From positions 1 to 44,518 of the forward strand of contig JBAXEA010000001.1 in NCBI GenBank assembly GCA_037140655.1: a stretch of DNA of 44,518 nucleotides, written 5' to 3'. A program made the position numbers and the translations under genes. Source of the DNA: a bacterium. GTDB lineage: Bacteria; Patescibacteriota; Minisyncoccia; Phycocordibacterales; UBA9973. The notes beneath the pieces are model-generated. The model worked only from the letters and a program-made list of their open reading frames with translations, was not told where the DNA came from and searched no databases. Below are positions 2,797 through 43,271 of the stretch, piece after piece. Every line of letters starts with the position of its first letter. Position 1 is the first letter of the stretch.

Positions 2797-4590
2797 ATGC
2801 TAAAAAATAATTTAAAAATAAATAATGAAAGTGGGTCTGCTATGCTGACAGCAGTAGTGTTTTTCATGTTTATTTCACTTTTAATTGTTGCAGGCCTAGT
2901 TTCACCTTCTGTTGTTGAATTTAAAAATGCTAGTGTGAATTTAAATTCAAAAGTTTCTTATGCTTTGGCTGAATCTGGTGTTGAAGATGCTGTTTATCGT
3001 TTAAAAAATAATAAAACAATCGGAGCTAACGAAACCATTATATTAGGTTCAAATTCTGCAGCAACTACTATCGTTACGAATGGTAATCAAAAAACAATTG
3101 AATCTGTCGGTAATGTTTCAAGTTATCAGAGAAAAATAGATTTAACAATTACAACTGGTGCTGGTGTTGGTTTTAATTATGGTCTTCAGACTGGTGCTGG
3201 AGGAATTAATATGCAAAATAGTAGTGATACAATCAATGGCAGTGTCTATACTAATGGTAAAATTGTTGCAAGTGGTACAAATTATATTACAGGTTCTGCA
3301 ATTGCTGCTGATAGCCCAGCTCTTGCTGTAGATCAATCAAATATTGTTCCAACAACTCCAACTAATTCAATAAATTTTGGAAACGTGTCAGCTTCACAAG
3401 ACTATGCTCAAAGTTTTCAAGTATCTGCTAATTTGCCATTAAATAAAGTACAATTTTATATTAAAAAAAATGGTTCTCCTGGTGGTACTATTACAGTTCG
3501 TTTGGTTGCTGATAACGCTGGTTCACCCAGTACAGTAAATCTACCATTAGGTACTGCTACTCTCGGTTCAATAACAACAAGTTATTCGTGGGTAAATGCA
3601 ACATTCACTTCAAATCCAGCGCTTGTTCCGAATACTACTTATTGGATTGTTCTAGACTATAGTACGACAAATGTTTCAAACTATTATATAATTGGTGCAA
3701 ATGCAGACTCTTCTTATGGTGTAGGCACAGCAAAAACTGGTGTATATTCTTCTGGTACATGGGTTGCAAGTAATTTAGATAGTTATTTTCAAATATATAC
3801 AGGAGGAGTTTCTGGGAGCATAGGTGGTGCTGGTTATGCAAGTGCACTTACAGTTGGAACGGGAAGTGTCGGTGATACGTGGGCAAGCAATGTGAGTGGT
3901 ACTACTGCTCGTGGAAATATGTACTGTAACACTGGATCAAATAATAATAAATCATGCACGACAAATCATGGTATTCCGCCACAGGTTGGTTTACCATTTA
4001 CATCAGCTAATATTGCTAGTTGGGAAACAGCCGCACTTGCCGGTGGAACACAAACAGGAGATCTTGAAGTTACTGGTGGAGCTGGAATTGTCTCGCTTGG
4101 TCCAAAAAAGATTGTTGGTAATCTTCATGTTGGTGGAAGTAAAACTTTTCTTGTTACTGGAACACTTTGGGTTACAGGGAATATCACAATAGATGGTTCA
4201 GGACATATGGAACTTCCTTCAAATTATGCATTAAATAGTGAAACTATAGTAGCAGATGGAAAAATATCACTTGGTGGATCAGCTTCACTTGGTTCTGGAA
4301 ATCCATCAAGTTTCCTTTTTGTTGTTTCAAATAGCAGATGTCCTTATGATACATATTGTTCTGGTGCCAGTGCAATAAGTGTCAGTGGTGCGGCTGGTGC
4401 TATTGCTGTCGATGCTCAGTATGGAGATGTGTCGATAACTGGCTCATCTTCACTTTGCGCTGCAGTAGGAAATTCTATGACTGTAACTGGTAGTGATACT
4501 ATTAACTATAATTCTGGTTTAGCTAGCCCATATTTTAAAAGCGGTCCCTCAGGTTCGTGGAATATTGATAAATGGCAAGAGACACAATAG
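2797..4590 (+). CDS. Large pilus-operon protein with a PilX-like N-terminal anchor and Gly/Ser/Thr-rich beta-helix-like C-terminal part
   Basis: I prefer the ATG at 2797 (MLKNN..), 5 nt after the previous stop, over the GTG at 2779. The TM segment SGSAMLTAVVFFMFISLLIVAGLV is followed by repetitive G/S/T/N-rich sequence. The function is inferred from operon context only. Confidence 0.55.
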   Translation: MLKNNLKINNESGSAMLTAVVFFMFISLLIVAGLVSPSVVEFKNASVNLNSKVSYALAESGVEDAVYRLKNNKTIGANETIILGSNSAATTIVTNGNQKTIESVGNVSSYQRKIDLTITTGAGVGFNYGLQTGAGGINMQNSSDTINGSVYTNGKIVASGTNYITGSAIAADSPALAVDQSNIVPTTPTNSINFGNVSASQDYAQSFQVSANLPLNKVQFYIKKNGSPGGTITVRLVADNAGSPSTVNLPLGTATLGSITTSYSWVNATFTSNPALVPNTTYWIVLDYSTTNVSNYYIIGANADSSYGVGTAKTGVYSSGTWVASNLDSYFQIYTGGVSGSIGGAGYASALTVGTGSVGDTWASNVSGTTARGNMYCNTGSNNNKSCTTNHGIPPQVGLPFTSANIASWETAALAGGTQTGDLEVTGGAGIVSLGPKKIVGNLHVGGSKTFLVTGTLWVTGNITIDGSGHMELPSNYALNSETIVADGKISLGGSASLGSGNPSSFLFVVSNSRCPYDTYCSGASAISVSGAAGAIAVDAQYGDVSITGSSSLCAAVGNSMTVTGSDTINYNSGLASPYFKSGPSGSWNIDKWQETQ

Positions 4591-4599
4591 AGATATATA

Positions 4600-4663
4600 C
4601 CCTGTAGTAGATTTTAGCAATATTAAAAATGTGCTATGCACATCGCCAAAATTCACTACGGGG
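4600..4663. repeat. Family-A structured palindromic element, copy A1
   Basis: CCCTGTAGTAGATTTTAG ... CCAAAATTCACTACGGGG. The outer stem encloses an internal ATGTGC-TAT-GCACAT hairpin. Intergenic, ending just before the tpiA -10 box. Confidence 0.8.
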
Positions 4664-4672
4664 TGTTATAAT
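4664..4672 (+). promoter_or_regulatory. Extended -10 box (TGtTATAAT), 6 nt upstream of the tpiA ATG (leaderless-type)
   Basis: TGTTATAAT-attctc-ATG(4679). The same TGnTAnnAT-N6-ATG architecture recurs at 10 or more genes in the window. Confidence 0.6.
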
Positions 4673-4678
4673 ATTCTC

Positions 4679-5440
4679 ATGTCTAAAAAAATTATTATAG
4701 GAAATTGGAAAATGAATCCGCTTACTAGTAAAGAAGCGGTAAAATTATTTACTGATATTGCAAAAAACTTAACTACCACTAAAAATGTGGATGTTGTTAT
4801 TTGTGCCCCATTTGTTTATTTAGAAAGTTTAAAGAAAATATCTAAAAAAATATCTTTAGGTACACAAGATGCTTTCTGGCAAGAGAAAGGTGCTTTTACT
4901 GGTGAGATTTCAGTAAAAATGCTTTCAAATATTGGTGTTAAGTATATAATTCTCGGCCATTCTGAAAGAAGATCATTAGGTGAAAATAATATTGATATAA
5001 ATAGAAAAATAAAAGCAGTACTTAGTGCTGGTCTTACACCTATAGTGTGCGTTGGTGATACAGAGAGAGACGAGAATCATGGATATTTCAATGTTGTAAA
5101 GAATCAAGTTGAAGAATGTTTGAATGGAATCAAAAAAGATTTGCTTGAGAAAATAATTGTTGCTTATGAACCAGTCTGGGCATTATCTACTACAATTCCT
5201 CGCAAGGATGCTACAGCAGAAGATTCACAAGAGATGGTAGTGTTCATTAAAAAAGTTCTTGCAGATAAATTTGGAGTGAAAACAAAAATGCCAAGAATTA
5301 TTTACGGTGGTTCAGCAAATGATAAAAATTGTGCAGATTTCCTAACTAACGGGGGAGTGGAAGGTTTGTTGCCTGGTGCTGCAAGTTTAGATCCAAAGAA
5401 ATTTATAAGTATTATTAACATAGCAGAACATATTATTTAA
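4679..5440 (+). CDS. tpiA: Triosephosphate isomerase
   Basis: MSKKIIIGNWKMN.., ..GHSERR.., ..AYEPVWA.. are canonical TIM motifs. The upstream part of the 4565 ORF translates the repeat element and is rejected. Confidence 0.95.
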   Translation: MSKKIIIGNWKMNPLTSKEAVKLFTDIAKNLTTTKNVDVVICAPFVYLESLKKISKKISLGTQDAFWQEKGAFTGEISVKMLSNIGVKYIILGHSERRSLGENNIDINRKIKAVLSAGLTPIVCVGDTERDENHGYFNVVKNQVEECLNGIKKDLLEKIIVAYEPVWALSTTIPRKDATAEDSQEMVVFIKKVLADKFGVKTKMPRIIYGGSANDKNCADFLTNGGVEGLLPGAASLDPKKFISIINIAEHII

Positions 5441-5535: not shown

Positions 5536-6675
5536 ATGCAATCAATAAAAAAAATAAAAGATACAAAAGGAAAAGTAATACTACTTCGAGCTGGTTTTGA
5601 TGTTCCTATAAAAGATGGAAAAGTCGTAGATACAAAAAGAATAGTAACAATTCTTCCAACAATAGAATATTTAATGAAAAAAGGACCGCTTGTGATAATG
5701 TCTCATCAAGGTAGACCAAAAGGCAAGGTGGACATGGCCTTCACACAGAAGCCACTTGTGCCAGTTTTAGAAAAATTACTTAAAAAGAAAATTAAATTTG
5801 CAACATCTTGTATTGGTGAAGAAACAGAAAAGATAGCGAGATCTTTAAAAAAGGGTGAAGTACTTTTGTTGGAAAATTTGAGATTCGAACCAGGTGAAGA
5901 AGCAAATGATAAAAATTTTGCAAAACAACTAGTAAAGTTGGGTGACATATATGTGGACGATGCTTTTCCAGATGCTCATAGAGAGCATGCTTCTGTCGTA
6001 GGTGTACCAAAATATTTACCAAGCTACATTGGTTTACAATTTGAGAAAGAAATAAAGTTTTTATCTATGGTATTTAAAGAAACCAAGCACCCATTTCTTT
6101 TCATCTTAGGTGGAGTTAAATTTGAAACAAAACTTCCAATTATAAAAAAGTATTTAAAAACTGCTGACAATATTTATATCGGTGGAGGAATTTTAAATAG
6201 TTTCTTAAAGGAAAAAGGCTTTGAAGTTGGTGTGTCTACTGTTGAAGATAAAGATTATGGAATTAAAAAATTTATGAAGAATAAGAAGCTGGTCATTCCA
6301 GAAAATCTTTTAGTAAAAACTTCTTCAGGTTCATTTATTAAAAAGAGTGCAGGTGAAGTTTCAAAAGATGACACTATCGTAGATGTGATAGATAAATCCT
6401 TAATTGAATTATATGTTCTTATTCAAAAAGCAAAAATGATTTTATGGAATGGTCCACTTGGAAAGTATGAAGATGGTGGGGCGAAAGCATCAATGGAAGT
6501 TTTGAAGATGATTGCGAACTCTAAAGCTAAAAGTATTATCGGTGGTGGTGATACAGCATCACTTATTTCTAAAATGAAAATGGAAGATAAGTTCACATTC
6601 GTCTCGACAGGTGGGGGAGCGTCACTTGAATATTTGGCAAAAGGCACATTACCTGGAATCAAAGCACTCAAATAA
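5536..6675 (+). CDS. pgk: Phosphoglycerate kinase
   Basis: ..LLRAGFDVP.., ..MSHQGRPKG.., ..STGGGASLE.. are typical PGK motifs. 379 aa. Confidence 0.95.
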   Translation: MQSIKKIKDTKGKVILLRAGFDVPIKDGKVVDTKRIVTILPTIEYLMKKGPLVIMSHQGRPKGKVDMAFTQKPLVPVLEKLLKKKIKFATSCIGEETEKIARSLKKGEVLLLENLRFEPGEEANDKNFAKQLVKLGDIYVDDAFPDAHREHASVVGVPKYLPSYIGLQFEKEIKFLSMVFKETKHPFLFILGGVKFETKLPIIKKYLKTADNIYIGGGILNSFLKEKGFEVGVSTVEDKDYGIKKFMKNKKLVIPENLLVKTSSGSFIKKSAGEVSKDDTIVDVIDKSLIELYVLIQKAKMILWNGPLGKYEDGGAKASMEVLKMIANSKAKSIIGGGDTASLISKMKMEDKFTFVSTGGGASLEYLAKGTLPGIKALK

Positions 6676-6737: not shown

Positions 6738-6780
6738 GTTTAAAACACATATAGTTATTCACATTTTAAAAATAAAGTAG

Positions 6781-7395
6781 ATGGACACAGAAAAGGCAAA
6801 AATTCCTACAGAGGAAGAATTAAAGAAATTTGGAATAGATATTTTATTCCATAAAGTAATAATCAAGGAAAATAAAAAAGACTTAGACTTGAGTCAGTAC
6901 TTGGTTTCAGAAAAAATTCATTTAGATACTAAAAAGTATTATATAAAATTTCCAATTAAAGGTAAGGATGGAAAAGTGATCAAAATTATTAAATTATGGT
7001 TACATAAAGATTTCAAAAAAAATATCTACGATCCAATTGAAGGAAAAATTGGTCATTTATCGCAAATAAATTTCACTGAATTTAAATTCAATAAAAACAT
7101 TCGTAGTGAAAAAATTAAAGAAATTTTTTATATTTCTGATGAATCAAAACATCTAAACAGAGAAGAAATAATGTGGTCATCGCTTCGTTTTGCAATGAGG
7201 CAATGTAAAAAAAATGATGGTCATCTGGTTGTCACAAGTGATCATTCTACTATTCTTTGTTCTTTTTTAGACGAAGCAGGTATCATATATTTAATTGATG
7301 TTAGATATGATGAAATGCATAATGAATTTGATTTGTATTGTCAAAAGAAAGATATCTTATTTTTAAACAAAGATCAAATTTTGATAAGAAAATAA
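6781..7395 (+). CDS. Hypothetical protein (204 aa)
   Basis: Long ORF with its own promoter and terminator. No motif recognised. Confidence 0.6.
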   Translation: MDTEKAKIPTEEELKKFGIDILFHKVIIKENKKDLDLSQYLVSEKIHLDTKKYYIKFPIKGKDGKVIKIIKLWLHKDFKKNIYDPIEGKIGHLSQINFTEFKFNKNIRSEKIKEIFYISDESKHLNREEIMWSSLRFAMRQCKKNDGHLVVTSDHSTILCSFLDEAGIIYLIDVRYDEMHNEFDLYCQKKDILFLNKDQILIRK

Positions 7396-17033: not shown

Positions 17034-17456
17034 ATGAAAATAAAAGTAAAGAGATTAAAAGAAAATGCTAAGTTGCCAAAATATCATCATCCCGGAGATG
17101 TCGGTATGGATATGTATGCAATGGAAACAGTTGTCTTAAAACCTATGGAACATCATAGATTTTTTCATGGTTTTGCCTTAGAATTTCCCGTAGGTTATGC
17201 GGCAATTGTGAAAGATAAAAGTAGTATTTCAAAAGCATTGCTACATACGATGGGTGGAGTCTTTGATGCAGGGTATAGGGGAGAATACAATACACACCTT
17301 GTTAATTTGGGTAGTGAACCATATACTATAGAAGAGGGTGATAAGATCTCTCAGCTTATAATTTATCCAGTAGCTATAGGTGAACTTGAAGAAGTCACTG
17401 AGCTTTCGGAATCAGAAAGGGGTATGGGAGGTTTTGGAAGTACGGGAAAAAAATAA
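17034..17456 (+). CDS. dut: dUTP diphosphatase
   Basis: ..GDVGMD.., ..DAGYRGE.. and the C-terminal ..RGMGGFGSTG (motif 5) are present. Confidence 0.9.
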   Translation: MKIKVKRLKENAKLPKYHHPGDVGMDMYAMETVVLKPMEHHRFFHGFALEFPVGYAAIVKDKSSISKALLHTMGGVFDAGYRGEYNTHLVNLGSEPYTIEEGDKISQLIIYPVAIGELEEVTELSESERGMGGFGSTGKK

Positions 17457-17457
17457 A

Positions 17458-19173
17458 ATGGAAATAAATAAAGAAATAAAAAAACTTATATTTGAAACTA
17501 TAAAAGAGTTGGGTGTTGCTTCCGGTGTTGGTGGTATTGAGTTAGAGCATCCATCTGATTTTAATAATGGTGATTATTCTACAAATGTCGCAATGGTTTT
17601 TGCTAAGGTTTTAAAAACTAATCCAAAAGAATTAGCTGAAAAAATTAAAACAGAATTAGAAAAGAATTTACCAAAAGAAATTTCAAAAGTTGAAGTTGCA
17701 GGTTTTGGTTTTATAAACTTCTATTTATCAAAAGATTTTTTTATTGAAAACACAAAAGAAATATTAGAGGCAAAAGAAAATTGGGGAAAGAATGAAATCC
17801 TTAAGAGTAAAAAAGTAATGGTGGAATATACGCAACCAAATCCTTTCAAGCCTTTTCATATAGGACATTTGATGAGTAATAGTATTGGAGAATCAATATC
17901 AAGAATTGTAGAATTTTCTGGTGCAAATACAGTACGAGCAAATTATCAAGGTGATGTGGGTCCTCATGTGGCGAAAGCAATTTACGGACTTATGAAATTC
18001 GGTATGCCTGATGAAATAAAATCAGTTGCTGAAAAGGCGCAATACATAGGTGAATGTTATTCTAAAGGAAGTAATTTATATGATGTTGATGAAAATGTAA
18101 AAAAAGAAATTGATGAAATAAATAAAAAAATATATGCGCATGATGATGAAAAAATAAATGAAATTTATGCTTGGGGCAGAAAGATCACGCTAGAAGCATT
18201 TGAAGAAATTTATAAATTACTTGGAACAAAATTTGATAATTATTATTTTGAATCAGAAGTGGCAGTAAAAGGGGAGAAGATAGTCCGAGAAAATGTCAGC
18301 AAAATTTTTGAAGAATCAGATGGAGCGATAATTTTCCATGGAGAAAATTATGATAAAAAACTTCACACTAGAGTTTTTATAAATTCTCAAGGTTTGCCAA
18401 CTTACGAAACAAAAGAAGTCGGACTTACAATAACAAAATTTGAAAATGAAAATCCAGACATATCTATAGTGACGACAGCCATAGAACAAGCTGAATATAT
18501 GAAAGTAGTTCAGAAAGCTATTGGTTTAATGCACGAAGACATGGAAAAGAGAATGAAGCATGTGACACACGGCATGATGCGTTTAGCGACTGGCAAAATG
18601 TCGTCTCGAAAAGGGAATGTAGTAACTGGAGAATCTTTGTTGCAAGATTCAATGGATGTTATTTTTGAAAAAGTGAAAGACAGAGAATTTAACAATGAAG
18701 AGAAAAAAGAAATTTCAAAAATTGTTGGAGTATCTGCTTTAAAGTATTCAATATTAAAATCATCACTAGGCAGTGATATTATCTATGATTTTGATAAATC
18801 TATTTCTTTCGAAGGTGACTCTGGTCCATATTTGCAATACACAGCAGTTAGAGCAATTTCTGTTTTGGAAAAGGCTAAAGAATTTAATTTAGAAAATAAA
18901 AAAGAAATTCCAGAAAATATTACAGATTTAGAAAAGTTGCTTTATCAATTCCCTGAAGTTGTGGAGCGTTCATATCTTTTACTTGAACCACATCATATAG
19001 CTACTTACCTCACAGAGTTAGCTAGTGCATTCAACTCTTTTTATGGAAATACAAAAATACTGCAAGAAGAAAATAAATTTGCTGGCTTTCATTTAGATCT
19101 AATAAAATCATTTTACCAAACAATGGAAAATGGTCTTTGGTTGTTAGGCATCCAAACTCCGGAAAGAATGTAG
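17458..19173 (+). CDS. argS: Arginyl-tRNA synthetase
   Basis: The start is at the ATG 1 nt after the dut stop (MEINKEIKK..). HIGH is ..PFHIGHLMSN.. and the KMSKS-like motif is ..GKMSSRKGN... The protein ends ..ERM. Confidence 0.95.
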   Translation: MEINKEIKKLIFETIKELGVASGVGGIELEHPSDFNNGDYSTNVAMVFAKVLKTNPKELAEKIKTELEKNLPKEISKVEVAGFGFINFYLSKDFFIENTKEILEAKENWGKNEILKSKKVMVEYTQPNPFKPFHIGHLMSNSIGESISRIVEFSGANTVRANYQGDVGPHVAKAIYGLMKFGMPDEIKSVAEKAQYIGECYSKGSNLYDVDENVKKEIDEINKKIYAHDDEKINEIYAWGRKITLEAFEEIYKLLGTKFDNYYFESEVAVKGEKIVRENVSKIFEESDGAIIFHGENYDKKLHTRVFINSQGLPTYETKEVGLTITKFENENPDISIVTTAIEQAEYMKVVQKAIGLMHEDMEKRMKHVTHGMMRLATGKMSSRKGNVVTGESLLQDSMDVIFEKVKDREFNNEEKKEISKIVGVSALKYSILKSSLGSDIIYDFDKSISFEGDSGPYLQYTAVRAISVLEKAKEFNLENKKEIPENITDLEKLLYQFPEVVERSYLLLEPHHIATYLTELASAFNSFYGNTKILQEENKFAGFHLDLIKSFYQTMENGLWLLGIQTPERM

Positions 19174-19210
19174 TCTTGCATTTTTGTAGTTTTGTGAGTA
19201 TTCTTAATAT

Positions 19211-19406
19211 ATACGTTGAAGAGGATTCTGCCATAGGCGAATAAAATCACCTCTGAGTATTGGGAAGAAAGTTTTATAACAAGTAGAACCCAACGGGTTT
19301 GCCCGACATAGCTTAAATTAAGAAGTAATCAAGGTGGTACCACGGGAATAAAAACTCGTCCTTGTATAGCAATTATTTAATTGTTGTACGTGGACGAGTT
19401 TTTTTA
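19211..19406 (+). promoter_or_regulatory. T-box leader (tRNA-sensing riboswitch) with intrinsic terminator, upstream of ileS
   Basis: The T-box sequence GGTGGTACCACGGG is at 19334..19347. The terminator is ACTCGTCC(19355-62)...GGACGAGT(19392-99) plus a T-run. The candidate Ile specifier ATC(A) is at 19246..19248, inside an AGAGG/CCTCT stem. A possible promoter TTGCAT-N17-TATTCT lies at 19176..19204. Confidence 0.75.
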
Positions 19407-19428: not shown

Positions 19429-22400
19429 ATGGAAGAACAAAAACAAACAAATACAGAAGAAAGACAAAAGTCGCAAACAGCACTTCGCGAAGAAGCTGTT
19501 TTGAAATTTTGGAAAGAAAAAGAAATTTTTGAAAAGACATTAGAAAAAATTTCACCAGAAGGGGAGTTTGTTTTTTATGAGGGTCCACCTACAGCTAATG
19601 GTAAGCCCGGTATCCACCATTTAGAAGCTCGTGCTTTCAAAGATGTTATTCCACGTTACAAAACTATGCGCGGATATTATGTTCGCCGAAAAGCTGGTTG
19701 GGACACTCATGGTCTTCCTGTTGAGTTGGAAGTTGAAAAAGAACTTGGCCTAAAATCAAAAAAAGAAATTGAAGAATTCGGCGTGGCTGAATTTAATAAA
19801 CGCTGTAAAAAAAGTGTTTGGAAATATTTAGATTTATGGAATGTATTTACTGAACGTATTGGTTTTTGGGTAGATCAAAAAAATCCATATATAACTTATG
19901 ACAAAAAATACATGGAATCTATCTGGAATGTGATGAAGACTATCGACGACAGAGATTTATTATACAAAGATTATAAAGTTGTTCCTTGGTGTCCACGTTG
20001 TGGTACAGGACTTTCTTCTCACGAACTTGCACAAGGATATAAAGACGTAAAAGATTTATCTGTGTATGCGAAATTTAAAGTTGTCGGACAAACAGACACA
20101 TATATTCTAGCTTGGACTACAACTCCATGGACATTGCCAGGTAATGTCGCACTTGCAGTCGGTAAGGATATTGAATATGTAAAAGTAAAACAAGGTCAAG
20201 ATATTTTAATCTTAGCAAAAGCAAGACTGGCTGTTTTGGAAGGTGATCCAGAAGTGGTGGCTGAAATGAAAGGTGAAGATTTGCTTGGTTTAGAATATGA
20301 ACCACTTTATCCATTTTTGAAAAATAATATTTCTGGAACTGAAAAAGAAAAATTAGATAAAGCTTTCAAAGTTTATAGTGCAGACTTTGTTACTACAGAA
20401 GACGGTACTGGTGTTGTACATACTGCTGTGATGTATGGACAAGATGACTTCGTATTGGGAACAGAGATAGGTTTACCGAAATATCACTTGGTTGGACTTG
20501 ATGGAAAGTTTTTGGCTGGTACAGATTTCTTAGAAGGAAGATTTGTTCGCGATGAGGAAGTTGCAGTTGATGTTATAAAAGACTTAGCACACCGTGGACT
20601 TTTGTTTAAAAAAGAAAGATACGAGCACACATATCCTCATTGTTGGCGTTGCAAAACTCCACTTATTTATTATGCTCGTGATTCTTGGTATGTAAGAATG
20701 TCATCATTACGTGCTGATTTGATGAGAGAGAATGAATTAATAAATTGGGAACCAGAACATATCAAAGAAGGACGTTTCGGTGAATGGTTGCGAGAAGTGA
20801 AAGATTGGGCAATCTCACGTGAACGTTACTGGGGGACACCATTACCTATTTGGGTATGTAAAGATTGTAAAGAAAAGCATGTTGTCGGAAGTGTGGATGA
20901 CATGAAAGAAAATGTAAAAAAATCTGGTAATAAATATTTCATCATGAGACATGGTGGAGCAGAAAGTAATCTAACCGGAAAGATTTGCTCAAGAGTTGAA
21001 GACCCTGATCATCTAACAGAAGAGGGGAAGAAGCAAGTACTACATTCAGCAGGAAAAATAAAAGATAAGAATATTGATTTGATATTCTCTTCTGATTTTT
21101 TTAGAACAAAAGAAACCGCAGAAATTGTTAAAAATGAAATTGGTTTGTCAGATGGTAAATTGATTTTAGATAAACGACTTCGAGAATTATGTGCTGGTGT
21201 TTATGATGGAAAAAATTGGAATGATTACCCTCATTTCTTAAAGGCGGCGCCTGAAGGCTCTGAATCATTTTCCGATGTGAAAAAAAGAGCAGCTGAATTT
21301 ATTTATGAAATTGAAAGTAAATATCAGAATAAAAATATATTGATCGTCACACATGATTCTCCAGCAAAGTTGTTGTTCTACACAGCGCTTGGTTTGAATA
21401 TGGATGATATTACAAAAATCGGTGCTAGTTATGATCATTTTAAAAATGCTGAATTTAGAGAATTAGACTTTGTGCCTATTTCACATAATGATGATTTTGA
21501 ACTTGATTTACATAAACCATATGTAGATGATGTTGTACTTATGTGTGCCTGTGGTGGTGAAATGGAAAGAGTAAAAGAAGTTATGGATGTTTGGTTTGAT
21601 TCAGGTACAATGCCTTTTTCACAAGACCATTATCCATTTGAATCTGAAAAGCGATCTGATTTTTTTGAATTACTAAGTTCTGATTTAAGTAAAACAAAAC
21701 TTCTTTATCCAGCTGACTTTATTGCTGAAGCTACTGATCAAACTCGTGGTTGGTTCTATACATTGCTTGCAGTTGGGGTTTTGATGGGTAAGGGAACACC
21801 ATATAAGAATGTTATTTGTCTTGGACACATTTTAGATGATGAAGGTAAAAAAATGTCTAAATCGCTTGGTAATATTATTGATCCATGGATTATGATAGAT
21901 AAATATGGAGTAGACACACTTAGACTTTGGATGTATGCAGTAAATCAGCCCGGTGAATCAAAAAACTTTGATGAAAAAACAGTGCTCGAACTTCATCGAC
22001 AAGTTTTTGGCTTGCTTTACAATGTTCTTGCTTTTTATGAATTGTATCGCAACCCATTATTAGAATTGAAAGATTACAGAGATTCTGAAAATATTTTAGA
22101 TCAATGGATTATCGCTAAGTTTGATGAATTAAATTATCTTTGTGTTGAAAATATGGATAATTATCGAGTGCTTGAACCAACTCGTGCGATACGAGACTTT
22201 ATAGGTGACCTTTCGACTTGGTACTTGCGTCGTTCACGAGACAGAATAAAAGATGAAGACAAAGAAGCAAAAGCAACTTTATATTTTGTTTTGAAAAATT
22301 TAGCAAAAATAATGGCACCATTTGCTCCATTCACAGCTGAAGATGTTTGGCTTAGATTAAAAAATATTGAGGATGTAGAAAGTGTGCATTTAGCAGATTG

Positions 22401-22635
22401 GCCTAAAAAGGAAAAAGCAGATAAAGATATAATCGAAGATATGGAAAAGGTTCGTAAAATCGTTTCACTTGGACTTGAGGCAAGACAAAAAGCTGGAATA
22501 AAAGTTCGACAGCCACTTTCAAAAATTGAAATAAAAGATTTTAATCTAGATGAGAGATATTTCTCTTTGATAAAAGATGAATTGAATGTAAAAGAGTTAG
22601 TTGAAAATAAAGAAATAGAAACTGAAGTTAAATGA
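19429..22635 (+). CDS. ileS: Isoleucyl-tRNA synthetase with an internal histidine-phosphatase-like domain; the ORF ends at an in-frame TGA
   Basis: HIGH is ..GKPGIHHLEA.. and KMSKS is ..GKKMSKSLGN... CP1/editing blocks and a zinc knuckle (..PHCWRCKTP..) are present. The insert at 20905..21507 has RHG/R/E/H phosphatase signatures. Confidence 0.9.
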   Translation: MEEQKQTNTEERQKSQTALREEAVLKFWKEKEIFEKTLEKISPEGEFVFYEGPPTANGKPGIHHLEARAFKDVIPRYKTMRGYYVRRKAGWDTHGLPVELEVEKELGLKSKKEIEEFGVAEFNKRCKKSVWKYLDLWNVFTERIGFWVDQKNPYITYDKKYMESIWNVMKTIDDRDLLYKDYKVVPWCPRCGTGLSSHELAQGYKDVKDLSVYAKFKVVGQTDTYILAWTTTPWTLPGNVALAVGKDIEYVKVKQGQDILILAKARLAVLEGDPEVVAEMKGEDLLGLEYEPLYPFLKNNISGTEKEKLDKAFKVYSADFVTTEDGTGVVHTAVMYGQDDFVLGTEIGLPKYHLVGLDGKFLAGTDFLEGRFVRDEEVAVDVIKDLAHRGLLFKKERYEHTYPHCWRCKTPLIYYARDSWYVRMSSLRADLMRENELINWEPEHIKEGRFGEWLREVKDWAISRERYWGTPLPIWVCKDCKEKHVVGSVDDMKENVKKSGNKYFIMRHGGAESNLTGKICSRVEDPDHLTEEGKKQVLHSAGKIKDKNIDLIFSSDFFRTKETAEIVKNEIGLSDGKLILDKRLRELCAGVYDGKNWNDYPHFLKAAPEGSESFSDVKKRAAEFIYEIESKYQNKNILIVTHDSPAKLLFYTALGLNMDDITKIGASYDHFKNAEFRELDFVPISHNDDFELDLHKPYVDDVVLMCACGGEMERVKEVMDVWFDSGTMPFSQDHYPFESEKRSDFFELLSSDLSKTKLLYPADFIAEATDQTRGWFYTLLAVGVLMGKGTPYKNVICLGHILDDEGKKMSKSLGNIIDPWIMIDKYGVDTLRLWMYAVNQPGESKNFDEKTVLELHRQVFGLLYNVLAFYELYRNPLLELKDYRDSENILDQWIIAKFDELNYLCVENMDNYRVLEPTRAIRDFIGDLSTWYLRRSRDRIKDEDKEAKATLYFVLKNLAKIMAPFAPFTAEDVWLRLKNIEDVESVHLADWPKKEKADKDIIEDMEKVRKIVSLGLEARQKAGIKVRQPLSKIEIKDFNLDERYFSLIKDELNVKELVENKEIETEVK

Positions 22636-22905
22636 GATACAGAAATAAATTCAGAATTAAAATTAGAAGGGGATTATAGAGAGCTTGTACGTGGAATTCA
22701 AGATATGCGTAAAAAGGCAGGATTAACTCCAAGTGATGTTATTGCAATTACTATCGAAACAGACGAAGCTGGTAAAAATCTAATACAAAAATTTGAAGAT
22801 GATATGAAGAAAACTATCATGGCTGGAAAGATAGAGTTGGAAAACAATGACGGTATAGAAATAAAAGTTGATAATCTATCATTCAAAATATCTATACAAA
22901 AATAA
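22636..22905 (+). CDS. ileS: Continuation of the ileS frame after the in-frame TGA (conserved IleRS C-terminal segment)
   Basis: This is the same frame as 19429. It reads DTEINSELKLEGDYRELVRGIQDMRKKAGL.., which matches the IleRS C-terminal block (..L..EG.ARE.vr.iQ..RK.aGl). The track ORF 22705..22905 is its tail. Confidence 0.75.
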   Translation, partial: DTEINSELKLEGDYRELVRGIQDMRKKAGLTPSDVIAITIETDEAGKNLIQKFEDDMKKTIMAGKIELENNDGIEIKVDNLSFKISIQK

Positions 22906-22963: not shown

Positions 22964-23359
22964 ATGAAAACCATATTAGTTGATGCAGTGTATTGTTTCA
23001 TAATAAAGCAAGATGAAAATTTTGTGGTATTTCAAGATATGTATAGATTACTTGAAGCTTATCCAAATAACAAAATTGTCCTAACGGGTGCAAATGATGA
23101 GCAGAAAATTAAATTTGGGTTGGACAATATTCCATATAAATTTTTTACATTAAAACATAATCCAGAAAAGACAGATCCAAAATATTATGAAATTTTACTA
23201 GAAAATTTTAATCTTAAAAAAGATGATGTTATTTATTTTGAGCATGACATAAATGCAGTAAAGAGTGCTCAGTCTGTTGGAATAAATACTTATCATTATG
23301 ATGACAGTAAAAGAGATTTAGAAAGTTTAAAAAACTTTTTGGATGAAAATTTAAAATAG
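22964..23359 (+). CDS. Small HAD-superfamily-like protein with a degenerate motif I
   Basis: ..ILVDAVYCF.. sits in place of DxDxT, and ..VIYFEHDINAVKSAQSVGI.. resembles HAD motif IV. 131 aa. Weak call. Confidence 0.5.
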   Translation: MKTILVDAVYCFIIKQDENFVVFQDMYRLLEAYPNNKIVLTGANDEQKIKFGLDNIPYKFFTLKHNPEKTDPKYYEILLENFNLKKDDVIYFEHDINAVKSAQSVGINTYHYDDSKRDLESLKNFLDENLK

Positions 23360-23360
23360 A

Positions 23361-23942
23361 ATGCATCATATTTATCACACTGAAGGTATTATATTGAAAA
23401 GCAATGATTACGGTGAAGCCGGGAAATATTATTGTATTTTTACTCGTGACCTTGGTTTGATTTATGCTTCAGCTCAAGGTGTGCGAAAGATGTCTTCGAA
23501 ACTTCGTTTTGTTTTGCAAGATTTTTCATATATTAAACTAGATTTAGTTCGAGGAAAAGATTTTTGGCGGTTAACCAGTGCTTCAAAGACAAGTAAACTA
23601 GATAATGTTGCAAAGAATACTGAAACATTAAAAATTTTTGCAAATATTGGAAGACTTTTACAAAGGTTATTGGCAGGGGAAGAAGCCAACTCCGAATTAT
23701 TCAATGATGTCTTACAAGGTTTATTTATTTTAGAAAAATCAAAAACAAAAGAGGAATTACAAAATATCGAAGTTGTTATAGTTCTTCGTATTTTAAATAA
23801 CTTAGGTTATATAGGTAATGATGAGATTTTGCAAGATGTCATCAGATCTCCATTTGAAGAAGAATTAATTTTTGAAATTAGTAAAAGCCGCACTAAGATT
23901 TTGTCTTTGATAAACAAAGCACTTGGGGAAACACACCTCTAG
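23361..23942 (+). CDS. recO: DNA repair protein RecO
   Basis: The N-terminal OB-fold pattern ..TEGIILKSNDYGEAGKYYCIFTRDLGLIYASAQGVRKMSSK.. is typical of RecO. Confidence 0.85.
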   Translation: MHHIYHTEGIILKSNDYGEAGKYYCIFTRDLGLIYASAQGVRKMSSKLRFVLQDFSYIKLDLVRGKDFWRLTSASKTSKLDNVAKNTETLKIFANIGRLLQRLLAGEEANSELFNDVLQGLFILEKSKTKEELQNIEVVIVLRILNNLGYIGNDEILQDVIRSPFEEELIFEISKSRTKILSLINKALGETHL

Positions 23943-25881: not shown

Positions 25882-25886
25882 AAGTT

Positions 25887-25930
25887 GCCCTACTCCCGGT
25901 TTAGGGCTAGCCCTAAACCGGGAGTAGGGC
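25887..25930. repeat. Family-B GC-rich palindrome, copy B1 (perfect 22+22 nt)
   Basis: GCCCTACTCCCGGTTTAGGGCT|AGCCCTAAACCGGGAGTAGGGC. It lies 5 nt after the upstream stop codon. Confidence 0.8.
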
Positions 25931-25944
25931 TAAATAATAAAAAT

Positions 25945-27261
25945 ATGAAAGAAAATAACAATGAATTAATGGAAAAGATAGTGTCACTTTGTAAAAGACG
26001 AGGGTTTATTTTCCCTGGCTCTGAGATCTATGGTGGACTTGCTGGTACATATGATTGGGCACATTTTGGTTTGGCATTAAAAAATAATGTTAAACAATCA
26101 TGGTGGAAAAAGTTTGTTGATTCACGTCGTGACATGTATGGTATCGATGCTGCTATTTTGATGCGACAAGAAGTTTGGCAAAAAGCCGGTCATGTAGAAA
26201 ATTTTGCAGATCCAATGGTGGAGTGTGAAAAATGTAAAACTCGTTTCCGTACAGACCAGATTGAAGATAAAGAAAAATGTGAAAAGTGTGGTGGTAAATT
26301 AATTGAAGCTCAAAAATTTAATATGATGTTCCAGACAAAAGTCGGAGCATCAGAAGATTCTTCGGCTGTATCATACCTGCGACCAGAAACAGCTCAAGGA
26401 ATCTTTGTGAATTTTAAAAATACAGTAGATGCTTTTCATCCAAAACTTCCTTTTGGTATTGCGCAGATTGGTAAGGCTTTTCGTAATGAAATAACTCCAC
26501 GTGATTTTATTTTCCGAGTTCGAGAATTCGAGCAAATGGAAATAGAATATTTTGTCAGGAAAGATGATTGGGAAAAGTATTTTGAGTATTGGAAAGGGGA
26601 GATGCTGGATTGGATGGAAGAAGTAGGTATTGATATGAATATAGTGCATGAGATAGAAATACCAGATGGTGATCGTGCTCATTATTCTTCTCGTACAGTT
26701 GATTTTGAATTCGAATATCCATTCGGACAAAAAGAACTTTTCGGTCTAGCGTATCGAACTGATTTTGATTTGAATAATCATAAGCTTGATTATATTGATG
26801 AAGACCCTTCGGCAAGCTCAGGACAAGGGAAAATGATTCCGCATGTTATCGAACCAACTTTTGGTGTTGACCGTGCTGTTCTTGCAATTATGCTTTCTTC
26901 TTATACAGAAGACGAGAAAGACGGAGAAGTAAGATCGTATTTAAAGTTTAAACCATCGATGGCGCCAGTTATTTGTGCAGTTTCGCCACTTTTGAAAAAT
27001 AAACCAGAGCTTGTAGAATATGCAAATACTAAAGTATTTGCTCCACTGAAAGCAGAGTTTGGTAGAGTCGCTTGGGATGACAATGGCAATATCGGTAAGC
27101 GTTACCGAAGACAAGATGAGATAGGTACGCCGTTTTGTATTGTCGTAGATTTTGATACTTTGACTGATGATGCAGTCACAGTTCGTGACCGTGACACAGG
27201 TAATCAAGAGAGAGTAAAAGTTTCAGAACTAAAAAAATATATTCAAGATAAAATAAACTAA
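25945..27261 (+). CDS. glyQS: Glycyl-tRNA synthetase (alpha2 type)
   Basis: ..RGFIFPGSEIYGG.., ..LRPETAQG.., ..FRNEITPR.. and ..HVIEPTFGVDR.. are present. The start is set at MKENNNE (25945), because the TTG-initiated N-terminus translates palindrome B1. Confidence 0.95.
   Translation: MKENNNELMEKIVSLCKRRGFIFPGSEIYGGLAGTYDWAHFGLALKNNVKQSWWKKFVDSRRDMYGIDAAILMRQEVWQKAGHVENFADPMVECEKCKTRFRTDQIEDKEKCEKCGGKLIEAQKFNMMFQTKVGASEDSSAVSYLRPETAQGIFVNFKNTVDAFHPKLPFGIAQIGKAFRNEITPRDFIFRVREFEQMEIEYFVRKDDWEKYFEYWKGEMLDWMEEVGIDMNIVHEIEIPDGDRAHYSSRTVDFEFEYPFGQKELFGLAYRTDFDLNNHKLDYIDEDPSASSGQGKMIPHVIEPTFGVDRAVLAIMLSSYTEDEKDGEVRSYLKFKPSMAPVICAVSPLLKNKPELVEYANTKVFAPLKAEFGRVAWDDNGNIGKRYRRQDEIGTPFCIVVDFDTLTDDAVTVRDRDTGNQERVKVSELKKYIQDKIN
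26805..26827 (+). repeat. GC-rich 23-nt motif CCCTTCGGCAAGCTCAGGACAAG embedded in frame in glyQS
   Basis: It is 22/23 identical to the glyA copy and is translated PSASSGQ. Confidence 0.8.
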
Positions 27262-27692
27262 TGCAAAAAGGAATCGATTATCCAGCAATAACTGTTTCAT
27301 GTATTTGCCATGATGGAAATGGTAATTATTTGATGAATAAAAGAAGTACTAATTGTCGTGATGAGCATGGTAATTGGGATTTTGGTGGTGGTGGACTTGA
27401 GCTTGGAGAAACTGTTGAAGATTGCTTGAAAAAGGAAATCAAAGAAGAATTTGGGGTTGAGCCAATAAAATATGAATTTTTAGGATATATAGATATTTTT
27501 AGGAAAATGAATGAGAAAAATACTCATTGGGTTTCTTTTGAATTTTTAGTTTTAGTTGATCGGTCAAAAGTAATAAATGGTGAGCCACACAAATTCGACG
27601 AAATAGGTTGGTTTAAATTAGACAATCTTCCTAAACCTTTACATTCAGTAGCTCCGATTATTTTAGAAAGATTTAAAGATAAATTAATTTAA
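27261..27692 (+). CDS. NUDIX hydrolase
   Basis: The Nudix box is ..[25 protein letters not shown]... The start overlaps the glyQS stop. Confidence 0.85.
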
Positions 27693-40781: not shown

Positions 40782-43271
40782 TTACTTTTTTATCACTTTT
40801 GTCATAGAGGTTTCATTTCCTTTGGTAACTAGGACAGTATATGTCCCAGAACTTAGGTTAGAAGTTTCTATTTCAATATTATTTTTTCCAATGTTCTTTA
40901 AAATTTCTTTTCCAGAAATATCATACAAAATAATTGTATGTGATTCTTTGTCAGAAAATTTAATGTTCAATTTATCATTGAATGGATTTGGATAAATAAC
41001 ATTTTCATCATCTTTAGCCACAGAAAGAATTCCTGTGGTGTTATTGTAATAAGCGTGAACTGGGTTTGAAATATTTGAACAACCAAAGCTGTTCATTACT
41101 TCAGCTTTATACCAGCCTGACATATTAGCAGTATAATATCCACTTGTAGCTCCATTTATCAAATTATTATAGTAGTACCATTTATAGGTATCACCAGTAA
41201 ATTGATGACAAACAGCTAAAGCTGTATCGTTCCAGATTGTTATAGATGCATCAGGTTTTTGTATCATTTGTACATGAACAGGAATTGCATCTTTAGAACA
41301 ACCGAAGCTGTTTATTACATTACCATACACCATACCGGTCCAGTTTACCTGAATAGATTGAGTAACCATTCCGCCATTATTCCAGAAATAAGTATTACCT
41401 ATTCCAGAATTAAGAGTTAATGTCGTACTACTTCCTTCACAAAATACTGTATCACCAGTAATTTTTGCATTAGGCAAAGGATTAATTATTACATAAACTG
41501 TATCAGTTTCTGAACATCCGTCCATATTTGATATTGTTACAAAATATTTTCCACTTTGGTGTATCAAAAGTGTTGTTCCTGTAGTTCCATTATTCCAAAT
41601 TGCTGTTGTTTGTGAAAAGTATGATGTACTACCAACCAAAAGTTGATAATCATGATTTTCATTTTCACAAATTCTTAATGTATCTACAACAGATGTTTGT
41701 GGACTTAATGGGTATCCAGTATTATTTGAGTAAATTACTGGATTCATTTTTTGTGGAGCTCCGACACTTATTGGATAATCATATCCCAATGTACAACCAT
41801 GTGCGTTTACTATACTAACCAAATAATTTCCTTGGTTTGATATTGTATGGTTATGTGAAGTTGTTGTAGTCAATACAGCACCTACTCCATTTTTCCAAAT
41901 AAACATATCAGAATTTGTTCCAGATATATTTATTGTAACCGGAGTGTTTCCACATCCTAGTGTAGGATTAGATGGACTTACCTGGATATTTCCTGGTTTT
42001 GCCCAAACATGTATTGTTACAATTTTATCAGCTAACCAATTACCTGAAATACTATCTAATATAGTAAGTTTTATGTAAGTAGTCGTAGCTTGATTGTAAG
42101 CTATGTCCTGATTTACATTTGCACCAGACAAATTTCCTTGTGCCCATGGCGTGTCCCATAGATATAATAAACCATTACTGATTGTAGATGTATTTATTAT
42201 GTGCAGGTAACCACCTTCACATAAATCTGTTGTAGTAACTGTAAAATCAGCTACTGGTGGAACTGTTATTGTTTGACCAGCAGGTGAAGCTACCATTCCA
42301 ACTGGATATGTGATGGCTGATTGCATTCCAATTCCTGTATAACTTACAAGTGTTTTTATGTTTCCATAAAAAGATGGATTTACATTTGCATAAATATCAA
42401 ATATTTTTGTGACACTTGAAGATACTACAATTTGGCTCCCAGTAAAAATAACATTACTAGGACTAACATTTGCAATTACATTTCCTAAAGTTATGCCAGA
42501 ATTTCCGTCTACAATGGTTAGATTGTGGATTTGATTTAGTGGATACGCATTTGGCGTAAAGTTTAAAAAACTTATTTGCAAAGATGTAACTTTAATATCT
42601 TCATTGCCACAATTGTTACTTATGGTATAAGACCCAATTTTAGTCCATGTGGTATTACTAGGTAATACTTGATCAGAATAATTCCAATTTCTTGAAAAAT
42701 CTAAACCATAACATGGATTAGTAACAGTAATGATTTGTCCTGGAGTATCTGCTTGAGAAGTTCCAGAAGGACACCATGGTAAACTTAATCCAAAATGTAC
42801 GGAAGTACCACTGTAATTAAAAGATGTTTGTACAGTTCCACCGACATTACCAACATTTACAAAAACATTTATTTCCTTTGTTGCTCCAGGCAGTAAAGTA
42901 TCTGTGCATAAAAAAGAATTGTTCCAATTTACATTGGTTAAGATTGATCCTATCGTTTGTCCTGCACATTGTATTGACAGGTTACTAAGATAAAGACAAT
43001 TAATTGTTGTACTGTTGGGTGGATTTACGATCGTCAAAAACAATTGTGATGTTACGATTGTATCGTTTGTATTATTTGTAACATGATACGAAGCGATTTG
43101 ACAATTTGTTTGGTTTGGAGATACTGTTTGGTTAACAAAATTTGGATTTAAATTTATTGTTAATCCAGTGCAGGTTGTTCCTGTTGTTGTAACTTGTGCA
43201 CTTACATTACTACTTGTTCCAGCCATAATAATTATGGCGAACATTACTAAGCTTAAAAATACTTTTTTCAT
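40782..43271 (-). CDS. Secreted multi-domain protein with tandem Ig-like Cys-bounded modules and a T9SS (Por) type-A C-terminal sorting domain
   Basis: The signal peptide is MKKVFLSLVMFAIIIMAGTSSNVSAQV. Four modules are bounded by C..G at the start and (H/D/F)GC(S/T) at the end. The C-terminal ..VIYPNPFNDKLNIKF..ILYDISGKEI..LSSGTYTVLVTKGNE..KVIKK matches the TIGR04183-type CTD pattern. Confidence 0.8.
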   Translation of the reverse strand: MKKVFLSLVMFAIIIMAGTSSNVSAQVTTTGTTCTGLTINLNPNFVNQTVSPNQTNCQIASYHVTNNTNDTIVTSQLFLTIVNPPNSTTINCLYLSNLSIQCAGQTIGSILTNVNWNNSFLCTDTLLPGATKEINVFVNVGNVGGTVQTSFNYSGTSVHFGLSLPWCPSGTSQADTPGQIITVTNPCYGLDFSRNWNYSDQVLPSNTTWTKIGSYTISNNCGNEDIKVTSLQISFLNFTPNAYPLNQIHNLTIVDGNSGITLGNVIANVSPSNVIFTGSQIVVSSSVTKIFDIYANVNPSFYGNIKTLVSYTGIGMQSAITYPVGMVASPAGQTITVPPVADFTVTTTDLCEGGYLHIINTSTISNGLLYLWDTPWAQGNLSGANVNQDIAYNQATTTYIKLTILDSISGNWLADKIVTIHVWAKPGNIQVSPSNPTLGCGNTPVTINISGTNSDMFIWKNGVGAVLTTTTSHNHTISNQGNYLVSIVNAHGCTLGYDYPISVGAPQKMNPVIYSNNTGYPLSPQTSVVDTLRICENENHDYQLLVGSTSYFSQTTAIWNNGTTGTTLLIHQSGKYFVTISNMDGCSETDTVYVIINPLPNAKITGDTVFCEGSSTTLTLNSGIGNTYFWNNGGMVTQSIQVNWTGMVYGNVINSFGCSKDAIPVHVQMIQKPDASITIWNDTALAVCHQFTGDTYKWYYYNNLINGATSGYYTANMSGWYKAEVMNSFGCSNISNPVHAYYNNTTGILSVAKDDENVIYPNPFNDKLNIKFSDKESHTIILYDISGKEILKNIGKNNIEIETSNLSSGTYTVLVTKGNETSMTKVIKK

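Follow-up and report, generated by a model that had tools for sequence, protein, structure and literature searches.

A histidine-phosphatase domain inserted into the isoleucyl-tRNA synthetase of Paceibacteria and its free-standing counterparts encoded next to ileS

Introduction

Kantor et al. (2013, mBio, PMC3812714) mentioned in passing that the isoleucyl-tRNA synthetase (IleRS) of an SR1 bacterium is interrupted by "phosphoglycerate mutase domains"; that protein includes a Nudix domain and two phosphatase-type domains. Literature searches for IleRS combined with histidine phosphatase, for Patescibacteria and for domain architecture found only this paper, and no functional study. The present analysis concerns the ileS gene of a Paceibacteria (Parcubacteria) bacterium belonging to the Candidate Phyla Radiation (CPR), located in a 44,518-nucleotide stretch of contig JBAXEA010000001.1 (assembly GCA_037140655.1), called the window below; the product of this gene contains a complete histidine-phosphatase domain within the body of the synthetase. 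The SR1 protein, as far as its published description allows comparison, is likewise an IleRS from the CPR whose sequence is broken by histidine-phosphatase domains (PGAM family), but SR1 is another phylum and its IleRS has three inserted domains, Nudix included, whereas the window protein has one domain at one site.

Other described systems share particular features with this locus. The solved type-2 IleRS of Priestia megaterium (PDB codes 8c8u-w) and Thermus thermophilus (1ile) have the same HIGH, KMSKS and editing motifs and the same DUF5915 C-terminal domain, but only a few residues at the position of the 199-residue domain of the window protein. The short branch-1 histidine phosphatases PhoE, PspA, CobC and GpgP share the fold and the catalytic core of the insert, but are only 22–26% identical to it, and none of them sits inside another enzyme. 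Catalytic accessory domains are present in mycobacterial MutT1, where an RHG phosphatase domain accompanies the Nudix domain of a nucleotide enzyme (PMC11784022), in the bifunctional RNase H/acid phosphatase and, on IleRS itself, in proteins described by the NCBIfam model ileS_w_GNAT (NF040702). These are end-to-end fusions or involve other domains, unlike the window protein with its internal insertion into a class I synthetase; such accessory-domain fusions are precedents, mostly with an unclear purpose.

The architecture is catalogued and common, yet uncharacterised. What is new here is the conservation of the catalytic residues, the linkage to an upstream gene, and the existence of other insertion sites, duplications and an added kinase.

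Results

The synthetase and the domain inserted into it

Coordinates refer to the forward strand of the window unless indicated otherwise. In the list of open reading frames (ORFs), ileS occupies positions 19429–22635 and encodes 1068 amino acid residues (aa) under translation table 11. Pfam searches of the product revealed tRNA-synt_1 in two stretches and Anticodon_1 at aa 891–1032, along with the domain discussed below, and the protein belongs to the NCBIfam equivalog TIGR00392 (ileS), scoring 881.7 bits against a cut-off of 621.4. The nearest solved IleRS are of type 2, namely Priestia megaterium IleRS2 (8c8w, 812 bits in a sequence search) and that of Thermus thermophilus (1ile); the body of the predicted model matches type-2 structures with target-normalised TM-scores of 0.73–0.84, and none of the solved IleRS structures compared is as long as the window protein. 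The product is a housekeeping type-2 IleRS. DUF5915 is annotated on its homologues.

The initial annotation of the window, made from the sequence alone, described the HIGH, KMSKS and editing blocks and the zinc knuckles as intact, and the comparison with homologues bears this out. The motifs GKPGIHHLEA (HIGH), GKKMSKSLGN (KMSKS), TTTPWTLP and GTGVVHTAV (both editing) are present, and the residues H63, K808–S812, T230–T235, H331 and D340 belonging to these motifs are invariant across 120 close homologues, as are the hairpin cysteines C477, C480, C706 and C708. The N-terminal part of the gene (19429–20910), delimited like the C-terminal part by Pfam, NCBIfam and alignment, encodes the first half of the Rossmann fold with the HIGH histidine pair H63/H64 (19615–19620), the CP1 editing domain and the first hairpin cysteine pair (C477, 20857–20859; C480, 20866–20868). 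The C-terminal part, up to codon 1068 (21508–22632), encodes DVWFDSG, the second cysteine pair (C706, 21544–21546; C708, 21550–21552), KMSKS (21850–21864) and the anticodon-binding domain. The IleRS body around the insert is intact, and AlphaFold2 models the full-length protein with a mean predicted local distance difference test score (pLDDT) of 82 and a predicted TM-score (pTM) of 0.70.

Between the WGTPLP and DVWFDSG motifs, at the tip of the Cys4 hairpin of the catalytic domain, lies the inserted His_Phos_1 domain (aa 495–693; 20911–21507), supported by Pfam, residue conservation, AlphaFold2 and Foldseek. PF00300 (His_Phos_1) matches aa 504–678 with 102.4 bits (cut-off 21.7, E = 3e-29) and the match covers positions 2–183 of the 194 in the profile; the full PGAM-like histidine-phosphatase domain proposed earlier is thus really there with an intact catalytic core, and of the limits first assigned to it, 20905–21507, the end holds and the start moves to 20911. 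The flanks of the insert align with 8c8w up to residue 475 and from residue 479 onward; the approximately 190 extra residues therefore represent a clean insertion. Homologues lacking the insert have a linker of 10–25 residues at this point (GS..EL...DLH(K/R)P), so that the earlier estimate of some 200 extra codons in place of a short linker agrees well with the 199 residues found. The reading frame is unbroken through both junctions and the GC content is uniform over them (0.36, 0.32 and 0.32 in the N-terminal part, the insert and the C-terminal part, respectively). The idea that the insertion site is that of the editing domain of bacterial LeuRS was dropped, as the LeuRS editing domain precedes the WG-PIP motif.

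The four catalytic signatures of branch 1 pointed out in the initial annotation map to R507 (20947–20949) and the nucleophile H508 (20950–20952) of the RHG motif, the second arginine R559 (21103–21105), the acid glutamate E586 (21184–21186) and the second histidine H642 (21352–21354). No variation is seen at R507, H508, N514, R559, E612 and H642 among the 120 close homologues, at least 90% of which also have E586. Across 94 diverse representatives, down to 38% identity, the conservation remains nearly complete (R507 in 93 of 94, H508 in all 94, R559 in 92, H642 in 93), and E586 is kept in 90 and replaced by aspartate in three more. Such a pattern, read from sequence comparison, shows strong purifying selection on the catalytic set of H508, R507, R559, E586 and H642.

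In the full-length AlphaFold2 model the block means of pLDDT within the insert are mostly about 85–96, with one block at 69, and the linker blocks joining the insert to IleRS have values of about 88–92. The insert modelled alone gives a mean pLDDT of 86.6, and Foldseek assigns it to the alpha/beta fold of the family with a probability of 1.00 to PspA, PhoE and CobC. The structure predictions, confident for the insert both within the protein and alone, show a complete His_Phos_1 domain that is predicted to fold on its own. The phosphatase protrudes from the Cys4-stapled hairpin of the Rossmann-fold insertion region, and two intact catalytic units are contained within one polypeptide.

Distribution of the fusion

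A search with the full protein as the query showed that all of the best 120 clusters at 90% identity carry both the IleRS domains and PF00300; their members are 63–79% identical to the query, 1138–1217 aa long and come from sources named Nomurabacteria, Paceibacterota and Patescibacteria. When 1.84 billion representatives at 50% identity were searched exhaustively and a local hidden Markov model (HMM) of the insert was then applied, 94 of the best 150 proved to have the domain, with overall identities as low as 38%. GTDB species genomes were scanned with eight close sequences, which yielded at least 376 related stretches; the best 80 of these were examined, and all 80 span the insert from one IleRS flank to the other. 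A scan with a divergent alignment of 21 sequences was unusable, since no stretch of it is conserved enough. The carriers among the best 80 stretches include Nomurabacteria, Paceibacteria, Wolfebacteria, Zambryskibacteria, Minisyncoccia and Parcubacteria RAAC4_OD1_1. The last of these, where the fusion (locus L007) is located on a 693-kb contig, is the OD1 genome of Kantor et al. 2013.

The same insertion is thus present in at least 80 GTDB species genomes. The initial annotation knew of no described IleRS with this architecture and made its novelty dependent on the fusion not being already catalogued and common; this novelty has to be given up, given the 120 of 120 clusters, the 94 of 150 representatives, the abundance of the fusion in public data and the SR1 case of Kantor et al. 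2013.

Some database labels of carriers deserve a comment. Many carrier genomes (L003, L009, L011 and others) have record titles reading "uncultured Candidatus Saccharibacteria", probably through mislabelling or a binning error; single proteins labelled "Burkholderiales" or "Sedimentisphaerales" (P0136, P0017) are probably also automated mislabels or binning errors.

The in-frame TGA and the integrity of the assembly

The ileS frame of the window is interrupted at codon 1069 by a TGA (22633–22635), at which a near-identical contig has the leucine codon TTA and homologues such as P0121 have leucine. Past the TGA, the last 89 codons of the C-terminal domain of IleRS (DUF5915) and a TAA stop follow in frame (22636–22905), with a translation identical to the C-terminus of P0121. 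The product of 1158 codons named in the initial annotation therefore comprises the genuine C-terminus in frame, but not an uninterrupted frame. The near-identical contig, L094, was assembled independently; it is identical to the window over 6,933 compared bases except for four substitutions, and diverges from it at about position 23362. One of the substitutions, T to G at 22634, turns the TTA of L094 into the TGA of the window, and the other three are synonymous and located within 180 nt before the TGA. Variation between strains, an error in the consensus or a codon that is read through may each account for the TGA of the window. An alternative code with UGA as a sense codon was rejected, as almost no real gene of the window has an in-frame TGA and L094 has TTA at this place.

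TGA is rare as a stop in the window, ending three of the 38 ORFs of at least 150 aa, with the one inside ileS included in the count; Kantor et al. 2013 (PMC3812714) likewise reported UGA to be near-extinct in the OD1 genome. No tRNA genes were found in the window.

The TGA downstream of the insert could be taken as a sign that the fusion is a chimeric assembly artefact, or that the insert is decayed, a catalytically dead structural element. This explanation is effectively refuted: L094, 120 of 120 clusters, 94 representatives and at least 80 GTDB genomes have the same architecture, which also settles the initial concern about a chimeric assembly, hundreds of other assemblies carrying the same gene, and the continuous frame at both junctions, the uniform GC content and catalytic residues that are almost never lost speak against it as well.

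Apparent splitting of the gene was also encountered. Truly split ileS and phosphatase genes, hinted at by short fusion proteins from long contigs (P0022, P0030 and P0031), were considered and set aside as most likely frameshift errors, EF-Tu being fragmented in the same assemblies. In the long-read-style assemblies L091, L092 and L093, ileS and EF-Tu are broken into short ORFs, leading to spurious "short fusion proteins" in databases.

Phosphatases as the nearest relatives

A Foldseek search with the model of the lone insert revealed the closest structures (query-normalised TM-score 0.72–0.77) to be phosphoserine phosphatase PspA (4ij5/4ij6, E of about 3e-14), the mycobacterial hydrolase 6s2q, PhoE (1h2e), glucosyl-3-phosphoglycerate phosphatase (GpgP) and CobC. 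Mutases rank lower, with TM-scores of 0.65–0.70, and the phmmer search agrees in placing phosphatases ahead of mutases (E of about 1e-12). The best NCBIfam match by E-value is NF038349, a short archaeal model of the cofactor-dependent phosphoglycerate mutase (dPGM), but the score is 79 bits against a cut-off of 225, and that of the dPGM model TIGR01258 is 17 bits against 81.7. The phosphatase models are not reached either: the insert scores 64 bits with the PspA model NF045917 (cut-off 350), 75 bits with the model of alpha-ribazole phosphatase CobC TIGR03162 (cut-off 163) and 71 bits with the model of the bifunctional RNase H/acid phosphatase NF005567 (cut-off 326), and the match to the SixA model is weak and below its cut-off. 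Since all curated NCBIfam equivalogs are far below their cut-offs, no substrate can be transferred from them, and the likeness is one of fold and superfamily.

Phosphoglycerate mutases of the dPGM type have about 230–250 aa and need a free C-terminal tail for mutase activity. The domain inserted into IleRS, with its approximately 190 aa, is shorter and passes at its C-terminal end directly into the synthetase, leaving no free tail. Given the size, the missing free C-terminus and the low mutase scores, we therefore read the insert as a probable phosphomonoesterase rather than a phosphoglycerate mutase. The module described at first as an apparently competent phosphatase or mutase is accordingly better read as a phosphatase than as a mutase, the mutase models lying far below their cut-offs.

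It had also been suggested that the domain is a moonlighting dPGM completing glycolysis in a reduced genome, and several observations agree with this. The window encodes tpiA (4565–5440) and pgk (5536–6675) and, as noted initially, no mutase: none of the 40 ORFs scanned is otherwise mutase-like. The absence of PGM from some clades of Parcubacteria was reported by Jaffe et al. 2020, and the top NCBIfam E-value belongs to a dPGM model. That model, like TIGR01258, remains far from its cut-off, however, phosphatases outrank mutases by both sequence and fold, the domain is short and without the free tail, and the absence of the gene is judged on 44.5 kb of the genome. A mutase role is accordingly weakened, and we regard it as quite improbable.

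Free-standing counterparts encoded next to ileS

Over its whole length the insert can be aligned, with 38–45% identity, to CPR proteins of some 190 aa that are free-standing. These homologues start with MK.KNKYF.LRHG, finish with ..GE.R.L and have the same catalytic residues. Five of them were located in their genomes (P0049, P0067 from Staskawiczbacteria, P0061, P0085 and P0091), and all five are encoded directly upstream of an ileS without the insert (931–963 aa), the two genes overlapping by as much as 10 nt or lying at most 4 nt apart. Genes are usually arranged in the order argS, the phosphatase gene, ileS, in some cases one further gene, recO, a DUF11 gene and a class II aminoacyl-tRNA synthetase gene, and the order in the window is the same except for the separate phosphatase gene. 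Locus L090 has an unrelated set of genes upstream, a retroelement cassette, and yet retains the pair of phosphatase and ileS genes. The free-standing phosphatases thus resemble the insert in whole-length homology, in the N-x-Y...RHG start and in the genetic tie to ileS, but differ from it in being separate polypeptides, strongly basic and with no T-box detected at their loci.

In the window, the conserved upstream neighbour argS (17380–19173, from the ORF list and synteny) precedes ileS directly; in sister lineages the free-standing phosphatase gene is located between the two. A relic of this gene was looked for in the 255-nt spacer between argS and ileS, and none was found. The listed argS start, GTG at 17380, overlaps dut, and in the near-identical contig argS is called with 571 aa, which corresponds to a start near 17458.

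Fused and free-standing forms fall apart almost cleanly when the phosphatase domains are placed in a neighbour-joining tree (46 of 50 bootstraps). In the IleRS neighbour-joining tree, fused, unfused and adjacent forms interleave, and this crude tree is too coarse for counting gains and losses. The two forms of the phosphatase also differ in charge: the free-standing proteins have a median isoelectric point (pI) of 9.75 and a net charge of about +14 (67 sequences), and the fused domains a median pI of 6.6 (94 sequences), with 5.8 for the window insert. Charge as a clue to RNA binding was discarded as uninformative, the glycolytic enzymes of the window being as basic as the free-standing copies.

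A probable T-box leader

The argS–ileS spacer contains a probable T-box leader (19207–19366; Rfam RF00230). Its Stem I is truncated, the specifier, located in AAUAAAAUCACC, is probably AUC (Ile), and AAGGUGGUACCACGGG represents the T-box sequence; the RF00230 match has 58 bits and E = 3e-12, which is below the gathering score of 93. Inspection of the sequence itself shows the conserved T-box sequence GGUGGUACC to be followed by a terminator hairpin with a U-run; this terminator-like hairpin, ACUCGUCC...GGACGAG and the U-run (19349–19404), overlaps the 3' end of the T-box, and unrelated Rfam models also match the region as a hairpin. Weaker T-box matches are present at the equivalent place in the fused loci L005, L007 (RAAC4_OD1_1) and L015, and no T-box was detected in the five loci with an adjacent phosphatase gene. 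With such a leader upstream of the fused gene, the phosphatase would be made under the control of tRNA-Ile in this lineage, and produced only when the T-box senses uncharged tRNA-Ile.

Other insertion sites and added modules

Among the full-length fused representatives placed on the alignment, 80 of 85 have the domain at the site found in the window. In P0275 (locus L095, 5001–8822), which differs in genomic context too, the domain is found only after residue 881 (numbered as in the window protein), where the anticodon-binding domain starts; in P0329 both sites are occupied by a copy, and in P0365 a second copy takes the place of the second cysteine knuckle. In P0383 (locus L096, 5001–9188), the loop before PADFIAE contains the phosphatase together with a P-loop kinase, the best matches of which, all weak, are APS kinase, shikimate kinase and Pnkp1. 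Every fused copy found sits in IleRS, the queries having been the full protein and the insert with short IleRS flanks, with no search made with the domain alone. Every one of the insertion sites falls within the catalytic domain's C-terminal half, around KMSKS.

The location of these sites around KMSKS would suit a protein phosphatase or regulatory module, removing phosphate from IleRS itself (for instance from a serine in the KMSKS loop or close to it), from a bound partner or from a phosphohistidine, and thereby reversing an inhibition. The superfamily does include such enzymes, SixA is among the weak matches, the closest structures bind phosphoserine, and in one lineage (P0383) the phosphatase is accompanied by a kinase domain; MutT1 is reported to act on sensor kinases through its C-terminal RHG domain (PMC12407098). 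The kinase of P0383, however, is of the P-loop small-molecule or nucleotide type with weak matches only, and the SixA score is below its cut-off; a protein substrate is considered unlikely.

Neighbouring genes

Directly after ileS there is an ORF of 131 aa (22964–23359) that is HAD-like, with a weak HAD_2 match (E = 4e-4) and a motif I of D-A-V rather than DxD; a HAD hydrolase gene follows ileS in the fused locus L092 too (6759–7382). Further downstream, a Nudix hydrolase gene (27261–27692) overlaps the stop of the class II aminoacyl-tRNA synthetase gene (25885–27261), so that this cluster joins a synthetase with a nucleotide hydrolase for a second time, comparable with the Nudix domain inside the SR1 IleRS. 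A protein of 829 aa encoded on the reverse strand (40782–43271) contains a Por_Secre_tail domain (T9SS-type C-terminal sorting), which is unexpected in a CPR bacterium.

Discussion

The reading that we favour, with somewhat more confidence than doubt, is that the insert is an active phosphatase functionally coupled to IleRS; activity of the domain as such is very probable. The phosphatase probably works with IleRS, as genes that stay paired while abutting or overlapping, together with the fusion and the integration at several sites, form the classic pattern for physically interacting partners. The domain would act as a phosphomonoesterase via a phosphohistidine intermediate at H508, with E586 as the acid, on a substrate met at or near IleRS, and it was probably a physical partnership with IleRS that became the fusion.

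If the two activities are coupled in this way, a nucleotide or a tRNA end may tentatively be proposed as the substrate. The favoured candidate would be a phosphorylated adenosine-type ligand handled at the synthetase, either a nucleotide by-product or a phosphorylated 3' end of tRNA-Ile, where removal of the phosphate would restore or tune isoleucylation. The Nudix domain of the SR1 IleRS, MutT1 as a precedent for a nucleotide-linked pairing (PMC11784022) and the kinase matches of P0383 are, by analogy, hints at an adenosine-type or nucleotide substrate. A stricter form of coupling, which seems rather improbable to us, would make the phosphatase a partner that IleRS cannot do without, since it would undo a phosphorylation blocking isoleucylation. 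The target would then be a 3'-phosphate or pyrophosphate on the CCA end of tRNA-Ile, or a phosphate placed on the KMSKS region by a toxin or a regulatory kinase; the domain would represent a built-in repair or immunity module, and the lineages adding a kinase or a Nudix domain would be its elaborations.

Several observations weigh against functional coupling. Copies of the domain within IleRS are not basic (median pI 6.6) and give no intrinsic indication that they bind RNA, and the nearest relatives with a characterised function use small metabolites rather than RNA or protein as substrates. The adjacency of the phosphatase gene and ileS could be inherited synteny, with proximity alone favouring repeated insertion next door. 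The insert also evolves faster than the IleRS body, with a mean pairwise identity of 47% versus 68–77%; a fast insert with fixed catalytic residues is, as far as the alignments indicate, the signature of a domain selected for its chemistry.

A serious rival is a plain metabolic phosphatase. The domain would then be an uncoupled housekeeping enzyme riding on IleRS, fused only for the sake of co-expression, and its substrate would be some common metabolite, for instance phosphoserine or the phosphate of a sugar or of glycerate. Its best matches are small-molecule phosphatases (PspA, PhoE, GpgP, CobC and the riboflavin-pathway HFP), it changes faster than its host, SHMT is encoded nearby in the window, and compact CPR genomes have many overlapping genes. 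Against this, the pair of phosphatase and ileS genes is kept where the other neighbours differ (L090), the domain occurs in IleRS at no fewer than three sites and also in two copies, all fused copies found are in IleRS (with queries that carried IleRS sequence and no search with the domain alone), and the linkers are short, conserved and confidently modelled. We hold such an uncoupled enzyme to be a possible explanation, though not a probable one.

Coupling of the phosphatase to IleRS remains the reading that we prefer, and the occurrence of the phosphatase as a separate upstream gene, as an internal insert, and at other sites or in two copies argues that IleRS and the phosphatase need each other. 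The aminoacyl-tRNA synthetases are a well-studied enzyme class, yet the only visible IleRS of a whole bacterial class carries a second conserved active site. Should the domain indeed act on a nucleotide, on a tRNA end or on the synthetase, then translation in organisms with minimal genomes would have a further, new level at which it is quality-controlled, repaired or regulated. If the domain is a plain metabolic phosphatase or a mutase, it would explain apparent gaps in CPR pathways, with the annotation "ileS" hiding a second enzyme. What stays interesting is the strongly conserved partnership of IleRS and a histidine phosphatase over a large bacterial radiation.

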